From assembly GCA_951406725.2 (NCBI GenBank), contig OX597837.1, positions 15,686,001 through 15,750,000 on the forward strand: DNA of 64,000 nucleotides. The letters are read 5' to 3'. Source of the stretch: Octopus vulgaris. Its lineage: Eukaryota. Below, in pieces: positions 58,155 to 62,027 of this stretch. The number at the start of each line of letters is the position of its first letter. Within the stretch, counting starts at the first letter, position 1. The notes beneath the pieces are model-generated. The model worked only from the letters and a program-made list of their open reading frames with translations, was not told the origin of the DNA and made no database searches. The translations under genes and the position numbers were made by a program.

Positions 58155-58965
58155 CCTTTTGTGCATTCTATTGTCTGCGCTATTTCTTGTATGAATTTAT
58201 TTTTATATAATTTTTTTCTCTCGTCTTTTCTTAAGTGAAGGATTTGCTTCTTACCATTTATTTTGGTTCTTCAGTCAACATCAATAGTGTAAACATTTTC
58301 TCCATTAATTCTATTGATTCCCCCAAAAAACGAAAAACAATAAAACAAAAACCAAAAACTAAAAAAAAAACACAATATAAATACATAAAAATAAAAGCAA
58401 CAACAAACAACAATCTTACTTTACATAAGTAAAAGAAAGAAATACAAAGATAAAACACACCACCAATAACAACACCCTGACTCAGCAATAAATCTATAGA
58501 AATATAGAAAATTATCTTTAGTTGCTTTTGTTGTTTTTTGTTGTTGTTGCTTATTATTTTTATATTGTATGTTAGTTTTTGTTTTTTTATTGGTTGTTAC
58601 AAGATAAAAAAAATAAAAGTTTTTACATCGCTGAGGAGGAAAATATTCATGTCATTGTTTTTAAAGTATCATGTTGGGTTGCTTGCTATATATGGGGTTT
58701 TTTTTTATTGTTTTTATCATCCTGGGTTTGGTTATTTTTATCTTTTGCTGTTGTTCTTTTTATTTCCATTCCCTCCCCCCCGACCCACCCCCCACACGCC
58801 ACCTTTTAGCACAGCAGCCTTCGGAGATTGGCAAACATCGCGGATTTTTATAGTTGTTTGACATCGGATCCTACAGAATGGTAAATGTGCAGCACAGAAT
58901 TATGATGGACAGGCTGCATCCGCATCCGTGGATGCGTGCAATTATTTGAAACAATACATCCATGC

Positions 58966-59241
58966 AATGTGTAGCACAGCCATGACATGAGCAGTAGGTT
59001 CTCAGGGTAAATACAGAATATTCATGATATATGAGCAGTATGTTTATGATATATATGCAGAGTATAAATTATATGTATATTTATGAAATGTGTACAGTGT
59101 ATACACACACACATGTAATGTGTAGCATATCCATGACATGAGCAGTATGTTCTCATGATATGGGCAGTATATTCATGATATATATGCAGTGTATAAATTA
59201 TATGTATATTCATGGAATGCGTGCAGTGTATACACACACAC
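58966..59241. repeat. Imperfect tandem duplication (~130-150 bp period)
   Basis: AATGTGTAGCA..CCATGACATGAGCAGTA at 58966 and 59117. ATGATATATATGCAG..TATACACACACACA occurs twice. Confidence 0.8.
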
Positions 59242-59507
59242 ATATTTTTAAGTTCTTTATTTCTGTTTATTTATAAAATATATATATATATACACACACA
59301 CACCTTATTAATAAAGCTGCAAAGACATCGCAAAAACTGTTACTCAGAGTTGGATGGATGGATAGACAGATAGATAAATAGATAGATGTGTGTATATATC
59401 ATCATCATCACCATCATTTAATGTTTACCTTCCATGCTATCATGGGTTGACAAAAGCTGGCAAGCAGGAGGGCTAAGCCAAGCTCTCTTTTTTTCTCGCT
59501 CAATCTC

Positions 59508-59565
<58 letters not shown>

Positions 59566-59670
59566 CCGGAGTAAACACATAAATGTGAAACAAGGTGGAC
59601 AAAAGAGTACTCAAATACCAGTGGTAGAGTAATATGCTTTATTTAAAAGCAGCTGAAAATTCAACAAAAC

Positions 59671-59708
59671 CTGTTACTCTGAGTTTCACGTTCCTGTTCG
59701 TCGGACAG
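59671..59708 (-). ncRNA. Minimal type I hammerhead motif (U4C core variant)
   Basis: CTGT-CCGACGA-ACA GGAA CGT-GAAAC-TCAGA-GTA^ACAG. Confidence 0.7.
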
Positions 59709-59729
59709 TTTTTGCTAGAATAGCAAAAA

Positions 59730-59767
59730 CTGTCCGATGAACGGCAACGGGAAACTCAGAGTAACAG
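59730..59767 (+). ncRNA. Minimal type I hammerhead motif (U4C core variant)
   Basis: CTGT-CCGATGA-ACG GCAA CGG-GAAAC-TCAGA-GTA^ACAG. Stem I CUGU/ACAG is perfect. Confidence 0.7.
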
Positions 59768-59819
59768 GTTTTGTTGAATTTTCAGCTGCTTTTAAATAAA
59801 GTATATATATACAGGTATA

Positions 59820-59961
59820 GGTATGGTGGTGTGGTCAAGACGTTTACTTCCCAAACTCCATGGTTTCAGGTTCAATATGACTGCATGGCATCTTGGGGAA
59901 GTGGGTGTCTTTTATTATAAGCCATGAGAGTGGATTTGATAGAGAGAAACCGAAAGAAACC

Positions 59962-59996
<35 letters not shown>

Positions 59997-60117
59997 ACAG
60001 GCTTCCTTTAGTTGGCCTGAGGCTGTAGTAGAAAACACTGGCCCAAGGTGTCACGTAATGAGACTGAACCCAGAACCATGTGGTTGGGCAGCTTGCTTCT
60101 TACCACACAACCATGCC
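59820..60117. mobile_element. Two SINE family A heads in convergent inverted arrangement
   Basis: A plus-strand head at 59820-59962 and a minus-strand head at 59993-60117 are separated by (CA)n. Confidence 0.7.
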
Positions 60118-61448
60118 AGCCACCACATAGTCGTACACATCTGCAACGTTAGTTGAGCAATAATTAGAAATAATTTAAACGAGACATAAATATCCAAATC
60201 TAATTTTCTACCAAAGTTTTTATCGTGATTATTATTATTGTTATTATTATTATCATTTTTTTCAACCGAGAGTTTATAAAATTTTATCTAATTAAAAGAA
60301 TTAATGAAGAAAAACAAGACTATTCAACAAAAGCATATTTTCTAATATTGACCCAATCTTAAAATACAGAAAGCATTGAATTCTGAAAGTATTCCATTAT
60401 CAACTTTCTTAACACCACCACCACCACCACCACCACCACAAAGTACTACTACTACTACTGTTCCAACCACTACCACCACCACCAGTTTCAAGACTTGCAT
60501 CACCACCACTGTTGTGAACACCACAACTACCACCACCATGAACTACTACTACTACTACCACCACCACCACCACCACCACCACCACGAACAACAACAACAA
60601 CCATTACACTGCCACCACCAACACCACTGCTGCTACTACTACCAATTCTCCCCCGCACCACCTCCACCACCGCACCACCTCCACCACTGCCCCCCCCCAT
60701 CTTCCTGCTTCTTCTCCACCCCTCAAAGAATCGCTGCAAAGAAGCCTTGTCTCTCCAGAGTTACTACAATGCCACAATGTCATTTAGTTGAATTCTAATC
60801 ACCAATTATAGAAATTAACATTAAACTATATCCAATTTGCAGAATAATAGGATAAACTCAAAATTAGCAAATCAATACTTTCTGCAAATTTTCATATAAT
60901 CTAATATTATTTATTTATCATTAGATTGAAAATTATTAGGTTTTGTCTATTTTTTTTCTCCTTTCCAAGAATTTTTACCGTTGTTGTTTAACTTCAGGTT
61001 AGTCGAGCAGACAAACCTGAAACAAAATGGATTCAAGCTGTGACCATCCTGTCGTATTTCTATGTACAGGAAATCCAAAACCCATATTATAAAATGTGTC
61101 CTTTTCTAAAACATGTTAAGCAATCCAGCTGTGACCATCCAGGCTTGTTCTTAAGTATAGGGAATCCATGATCAAATTAATCCAATGTGTACTTTTCTAT
61201 AACATGAAAAGCACTCCAGCTGTGACCATCACATCTTATTTCCTAAAATAAAAAAAATGGTGTAATTTGAAGGAAATTTGGCTGCTATTTTTAGAAGGTT
61301 GAGTGACCACAAAGAGGCTTATTCATTGATTCATCATGAAGTTACCAATGGTGAAGCAGAGGTGAAAGCCCCCCCCCCCCCCCCCCCCAATAAATTGATA
61401 GGATTGAAAAAATTGAACAGTAACATATTACATTATTTAATTTTGACG

Positions 61449-61678: not shown

Positions 61679-62027
61679 ACTGATGCGAAATGCTGATGAC
61701 ACACAGACACACACACACGACAGACTTCTTTCAGTTTCTCTCTTCCAAATCCACTCACAAGACTTTGGTCAGCTGAGGCCATAGTAGAAGACACCTGACC
61801 AAAGTGCCCAGAACCATGTGGTTGGGAGACAAACTTTGTACCACAGAACCTTGCCTGCATATATATATATATACATATCATGAGCCTGGTGCTGCCATCT
61901 GCCTCACCAGTCAAACTGTCCAACCCATGCCAGCATGGAAAGCGGATGTTAAAATGATGATGATGATATATACATATACATGAGAAAGTGAGATGACAAA
62001 AGAATAAATGATGTCATGAACTCCATT

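Follow-up and report, generated by a model that had tools for sequence, protein, structure and literature searches.

Near one end of the window, by which we mean the whole 64,000-nt stretch of Octopus vulgaris DNA analysed here, two hammerhead-like motifs face each other in a nearly perfect palindrome, and both carry C instead of the canonical U at core position 4 (C4). This raises the question of what kind of sequence the palindrome is, and whether ribozymes with such a core do anything. The inverted repeat comprises two arms of 86 nt each (59632-59717 and 59721-59806), which are 94% complementary and separated by a 3-nt spacer. Five pairs are mismatched: 59738/59700 at core position N7; 59743/59695, 59745/59693 and 59750/59688 in the stem II region; and 59802/59636. 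An earlier note on this DNA, which had described 86-bp arms with five mismatches, four of them at N7 and in stem II, is borne out by this comparison. The fifth mismatch, however, lies outside the element, at the insertion junction where the left arm continues into the tail and the right arm reaches (TA)n, so that the true arms of the element are 81 nt long with four differences.

We found that the palindrome belongs to a Hydra-clade Penelope-like element (PLE), of which two 5'-truncated copies were inserted head to head in a (TA)n microsatellite, with a total length of 237 bp. The left flank of the target microsatellite (59512-59564), called from the sequence and like the flanks at the 30 best-matching loci, is followed on the minus strand by a 72-nt 'tail' (59565-59636), which lies between two fixed 3' ends and leads to the open reading frame (ORF) in full-length copies. 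The left arm (59637-59721, minus strand) is 5'-truncated and of the subfamily A type (C4, C7, GGAA loop, U11.1); its 5' end falls 47 nt upstream of the cleavage site, at a stop hotspot of the PLE family. It carries type I hammerhead motif 1 (59671-59708, minus strand; C3 at 59704, C4 at 59703 and A17 at 59675), in which a CpG-type change at 59695 breaks one C-G pair of stem II. The right arm (59721-59801, plus strand), likewise 5'-truncated and without the tail, joins a subfamily C core (C4, U7, GCAA loop, G11.1) to an A-type 3' part and carries type I motif 2 (59730-59767, plus strand; C3 at 59734, C4 at 59735, G12 at 59751, a palindromic stem III at 59754-59762 and A17 at 59763), beyond which the sequence returns to the (TA)n microsatellite (right flank, 59802-59811, also called from the sequence). 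A separate 48-nt fragment about 210 nt from the palindrome (59304-59351, minus strand) belongs to an older subfamily of the same PLE and retains only stem III and the part downstream of it; its 21-nt pattern has 13 exact matches genome-wide.

The parent PLE resides in the same genome and was reached by following copies spaced ~3.36 kb apart. Its unit of ~3.36 kb contains a 727-codon frame directly behind the same motif and 72-nt tail, with the ORF starting ~170 nt downstream of the cleavage site. The frame displays the reverse transcriptase (RT) motifs DIIDFYP, PMG and YRDD and a C-terminal VVY...YTG endonuclease region (GIY-YIG-type), and its homologues are 43-58% identical. Since Pfam and PDB sequence searches with the parent ORF yielded no relevant match, the RT and endonuclease calls rest on these motifs and on the precomputed Pfam labels of the homologues. 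Partial tandems (pseudo-LTR), inverted 5'-truncated copies and a tail at one end are the PLE hallmarks found. The clade assignment is based on marks, namely RWK, DKT, a CxCX5C linker, CxxC and CxH around conserved E and N, and the (TA)n target, compared with the list in section 11 of Craig et al. 2021 (PMC8557442). RWK, DKT, CxCX5C, the (TA)n target, inverted 5'-truncated copies and a one-end tail are likewise described for Hydra-clade PLEs in that paper, although the tail, 72 nt in the octopus PLE with its ~3.36-kb unit, measures 30-40 nt there. A non-LTR retrozyme was considered and rejected, because the repeated unit forms the terminus of a 3.36-kb element that encodes protein, and there is no monomer array at the locus.

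ORF matches are free of stops in 59 of the 61 scored. They include a very young subfamily that is probably active at present, as its ends are nearly identical and at least 59 of its ORF copies are free of stops. Its hammerhead differs from that of Hydra-1_oBim, the octopus family given in the available part of PMC8557442, as does the hammerhead of the window PLE, so that by its hammerhead the young subfamily is not Hydra-1_oBim. When a homologue of 48% identity was used as the query to reach more distant families, only the young subfamily was recovered.

The palindrome itself is an ordinary insertion product of this PLE, one among thousands of short back-to-back copies. A first look for the 243 bases of the locus in its own genome returned 1,675 candidates, and the best 30 of the 40 that were scored match at 89-100%, lie in (TA)n and have variable centres; the downstream pattern places at least 8,516 arms genome-wide. 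The arms have two fixed 3' end points, 72 nt apart, and exactly one arm bears the tail in 36 of the 38 head-to-head pairs of a position-ordered contig-1 sample (72 of 76 overall, a total which includes 30 loci chosen by similarity to the window). At the other side, not one of the 95 arms examined out of the first 100 listed (48 U4-tagged and 47 C4-tagged) ends at the cleavage site, the shortest true extensions being ~4 nt, which indicates that the insertion templates were uncleaved. Instead, arms tend to stop further upstream: in a set of 111 arms, taken from contig-1 loci that had been picked by pattern, 64 extend as far as -43, and 35 of these end within 6 nt (by -48), whereas over the following 11 nt only 3 of 29 do so (p = 4e-5). 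At -47, where the left window arm ends, there is an A in a YYANWYY context, which we take to be the initiator consensus. Judging from these DNA ends and from the consensus, the zone 43-48 nt upstream of the cleavage site is likely the RNA start; in addition, joining by microhomology may be favoured by a CTAG palindrome located at -44 to -41. In four presumed RNA runs, represented by contigs, no position emerged at which many molecules start or end, data of this kind being silent on start sites and cleavage. Five of the seven arms ending exactly at -47 have a G in front of them, which is what copying of a cap would leave; the G may also stem from the opposite arm.

Under the mechanism that we propose, the protein of the element would nick both (TA)n strands and thereby prime two cDNAs, one from each of the two fixed start sites 72 nt apart, so that the tail would be present on one arm only. 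Both cDNAs would copy uncleaved RNA through the hammerhead, stop at or near position -47, where the RNA is likely to begin, and be joined there by their ends. The one-arm tail pattern matches what is reported, in the portion of the paper available, for the green anole PLE PAc Poseidon (Frangieh et al. 2024, PMC11167929), in which two internal RT starts define the tail and both strands are nicked and extended. The main substrate of PAc Poseidon is, according to the same text, uncleaved RNA, and its hammerhead is protein-assisted; the lizard element differs in belonging to another clade and in its ORF, which begins inside the hammerhead rather than ~170 nt past the cleavage site.

Of the four differences between the arms, three are subfamily-diagnostic letters and one is a CpG transition; they are thus largely inherited and do not represent drift tolerated after the inversion, as had been suggested. 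Since a class C core is joined to an A-type 3' part, the right arm is a mosaic, which may have arisen by a template switch, from a source with two different ends, or by later conversion. Of the 76 head-to-head pairs, 4 have arms that disagree at a minimum of two diagnostic sites. One letter common to both window arms occurs in only 25 arms genome-wide; this private letter (TTCAG) was rejected as a subfamily mark, given that the 25 arms carry mixed haplotypes and that both arms have it at only 2 loci. One stem II letter is over-represented on one arm in the top 30 loci, but these loci had been selected for their similarity to the query, which accounts for the excess. As to the age of the palindrome, which the earlier note called young, the description is apt in part: pairwise divergence is 3.3-3.4% in the subfamilies of the window, compared with 1.4% in the youngest subfamily.

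Each arm follows the type I layout, with CTGT of stem I, CCGANGA, a 2-3-bp stem II capped by a GNRA loop, GAAA, a palindromic stem III, GUA and ACAG. CCGANGA and the GNRA loops, correctly recognised in the earlier note, are common to both arms, as are ACTCAGAGT and the GUA triplet with A17. C3, G5, A6, G8, A9, G12, A13, A14, A15.1-U16.1 and the NUH site are all present in both, and each of these core positions is conserved in at least 93% of 294 motifs gathered by a pattern allowing 5 substitutions. Canonical U4, by contrast, is absent from both window arms, and across the 294 motifs position 4 is C in 199, U in 89 and another letter in 6. The canonical G10.1-C11.1 closure of stem II is missing as well: the 10.1-11.1 pair is A-U in 134 motifs, A.A in 75, A.G in 70, A.C in 14 and G-U in 1, with two C-G/G-C pairs and the GNRA loop persisting. 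At E <= 10, the Rfam hammerhead model matches neither the right window arm (C4) nor a canonical U4 copy, and hammerhead is absent among the matches listed for the whole window (150 of 375). We therefore base the hammerhead call on the anatomy of the motif and its likeness to published Hydra-clade motifs.

Apart from double CpG decay, compensatory covariation is absent from every stem of the 294 motifs, in which pairs are either invariant or decaying. The covariation of stem II raised in the earlier note is accordingly not seen, the 10.1-11.1 pair being open in 159 of the 294. The stem II proposed there (ACG-GNAA-CGT) is the one that older subfamilies possess. In the distal part of stem I, strands taken from one subfamily do not pair better than strands from different subfamilies. 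The predicted hammerhead fold lies 3-5 kcal/mol above the predicted minimum for the two window arms as well as for the U4 copy. Stem III is predicted to self-pair between molecules (-7.4 to -7.9 kcal/mol, the value for the parent RNA being -7.4), and its palindrome is retained across three loop letters (U, C and A); the idea of dimerisation through a near-palindromic stem III fits dimer-type PLE hammerheads. It does not extend to the two motifs as a pair, which lie on opposite strands and hence never occur in one RNA, leaving no dimer in cis. Read-through RNA of the locus is predicted to fold as a long hairpin (-133 or -122 kcal/mol); with this predicted hairpin and the opposite orientations, the two motifs of the locus are likely inert. 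Elsewhere in the genome (C18:57016889-57017195), a single strand carries two directly repeated hammerheads at a distance of ~60 nt, which could dimerise in cis.

To what extent is C4 a feature of the whole family? An 18-nt pattern has 2,860 exact genome-wide matches with C4 and 3,904 with U4, compared with 0 and 1 for the reversed control patterns, and these numbers are far beyond chance. In the position-ordered contig-1 sample, the 93 arms divide into 45 with C4, 45 with U4 and 3 with other letters, and position 4 is linked to position 11.1, A11.1 being found in 41 of the 45 U4 arms but in only 3 of the 45 C4 arms. Whether C4 is fixed, a question raised in the earlier note, is thus answered in the negative: it is a subfamily trait. 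A U or C in loop III marks older subfamilies, and these are C4: the cores of 94 non-young copies among the matches listed (100 of 556, minus 6 of the young type, counted by eye) are CCGA in 69, CTGA in 13, CCAA in 11 and CTAA in 1, and the symmetric CTGA/CCAA minority points to CpG decay from a C4 master. Consistently, 25 of the 28 readable cores at 30 loci chosen by the tail alone are C4, whereas all 57 motifs at the 30 intact-ORF loci retrieved are canonical U4. Thus, C4 at this locus was inherited from older subfamilies and predates the inversion, as proposed earlier; the proposed core-variant hammerhead family is indeed natural and of high copy number, although it does not stand alone but forms part of a PLE insertion. 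At C1:121193266-121194696, a C4 palindrome and its flank occur twice in identical form at a distance of 1,332 bp, through local duplication or as an assembly artefact.

Nested diagnostic sites arrange the subfamilies in a ladder, in which pairwise divergence falls from 14.1% in the old subfamily (28 arms) to 3.3-3.9% in A, B and C and to 1.4% in the youngest one, which has U4 (15 arms), with class D (7.5%, 11 arms) out of ladder order. In a tree of 30 ORF-end sequences, which is midpoint-rooted, lacks the oldest subfamilies and has one U4-core copy with a C-type stem labelled in the U4 group, C4 branches are long and U4 tips are short. Given the ladder, the tree and the U4 found in all 26 published Hydra-clade rows (available part of PMC8557442), the most likely history is one in which U4 gave way to C4 for a long period before being regained, and the return of the youngest subfamily to U4 likely took place by a CpG transition. 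Five changes separate old from young in the 38-nt motif. None of them affects another core position, stem I, stem III or a C-G pair, and 3 of the 5 fall on 4 freely variable sites (p = 0.005, with only five changes), a pattern that hints at selection on the fold.

What, then, does the C4 hammerhead do for the element? We consider it reasonably probable that the C4 core inherited by each arm cleaves slowly, and only as a dimer or with the assistance of protein, and that cleavage is not needed for insertion. A natural viroid hammerhead with U4C is far slower in vitro and yet sufficient in vivo (Ambros and Flores 1998, cited in the available section of Perreault et al. 2011, PMC3088659), and cleavage was dispensable for insertion in one in vitro study (PMC11167929, available portion). 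The occurrence of C4 throughout older subfamilies, and its reversal in the youngest, suggests that the element may be able to spread with a weakened ribozyme.

Rather unlikely, in comparison, is the possibility that the C4 motif does not cleave at all and is kept as a structural element, e.g., as a stem III dimerisation signal or a protein-binding fold, which would unite two RNAs in one particle for twin priming. The self-pairing stem III, palindromic through all three loop letters, would be expected of such a signal, and ribozyme-dead mutants of another PLE do insert in vitro (PMC11167929, available portion). That the cleavage site is never an insertion end in the 95 arms also agrees with it, but U4-tagged arms equally lack such ends, and hence this test is blind to C4 versus U4; similarly, the 4 of 76 pairs with arms differing at two or more subfamily sites look as if copied from two templates, but the pairs are mostly concordant. 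A purely structural role is further opposed by the retention of the other catalytic residues and the GUA site along the lineage, including G5 and G8, which are unchanged in every subfamily majority although both lie in decaying CpGs. A more elaborate and similarly unlikely scenario is that the lineage switched its hammerhead off (U4C) over several successive subfamilies and later on again, with the palindromic stem III retained because it signals the dimerisation by which two template RNAs come together for twin-primed insertion. If this were true, the genome would hold a dated natural series, from old C4/A-U through C4/A.G to young U4/A.A, which would directly test whether PLE hammerheads need to cleave.

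It is improbable, in our judgement, that the motif is a neutral relic which the element does not need, with C4 acquired by drift and U4 regained through the commonest mutation, CpG to TpG. CpG decay at this position is common in old copies (the 13 and 11 of 94 given above, among the matches listed), the younger subfamilies have lost the 10.1-11.1 pair, the motif has changed about as much as the tail, and Naiad PLEs thrive without canonical hammerheads (PMC8557442, in the part available). Nevertheless, the changes avoid constrained sites, with the p value and the small number of changes noted above, and both stem II CpGs are kept in every subfamily majority except in the query-biased class A sample. 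Finally, a locus-specific young palindrome in which the hammerheads act as a pair and the arm differences reflect selection after the inversion is very improbable: the clustering of four differences within 13 nt and the rare private letter in both arms, which implies a common template or partial homogenisation, are outweighed by the placement of the motifs on opposite strands with a stable predicted hairpin, by the identity of three differences with pre-existing subfamily letters and the breakage of a stem II pair by the fourth, and by a layout which is the normal insertion product of the PLE family.

The element type, the inverted layout and the dimer-type hammerheads are already known; what is new, modestly so, is the C4 core variant. 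The minimal PLE hammerheads of the dimer type that Cervera and de la Pena described in 2014 (PMC4209133) are likewise of type I, with a short palindromic stem III, massive copy numbers and close opposite-strand pairs, and Hydra-2_aMil (PMC8557442, File S2 as available) shares with the octopus PLE the ctgt/acag stem I, the actc-N-gagt stem III and A at the cleavage site. By contrast, all 26 Hydra-clade rows of that file have U4 and longer stems II, whereas in the octopus PLE the older subfamilies have C4 and stem II is 2-3 bp. The 56 motifs in Fig. S3 of PMC4209133 have CUGA or a U3-A8 variant, CCGA occurring in none, and possess the G10.1-C11.1 pair that is absent here. The C4 core is accordingly lacking from the 56 and 26 PLE motifs in the available parts of these two sources, and our literature searches returned no report of a C4 PLE hammerhead, although one may exist; the accessible portions of PMC3376415, PMC11014351 and bioRxiv 10.64898/2026.07.22.740005 add nothing on position 4. 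Whereas U4C in the viroid motif is a variant (PMC3088659, available section), in the octopus PLE it characterises several successive subfamilies, which comprise thousands of copies and were succeeded by one that has U4 again. The role of hammerheads in PLEs is stated to be unclear (PMC8557442, in the part available), and a lineage with thousands of C4-core copies and then U4 again offers matched natural ribozymes for addressing it. Searches based on CUGANGA overlook about two fifths of the motifs in the octopus PLE family.

As for the surroundings of the palindrome, no long host ORF is evident among the 40 window frames of at least 130 aa, which give the impression of reading through microsatellites. 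The surroundings also include degenerate tandem repeats at 61025-61242 and 58956-59243 (periods of ~91 and 129-151 nt). To the right of the palindrome, short interspersed repeat fragments lie at 59818-59990 and 60000-60120, with partial copies near 61700-61880, and may resemble cephalopod SINEs.
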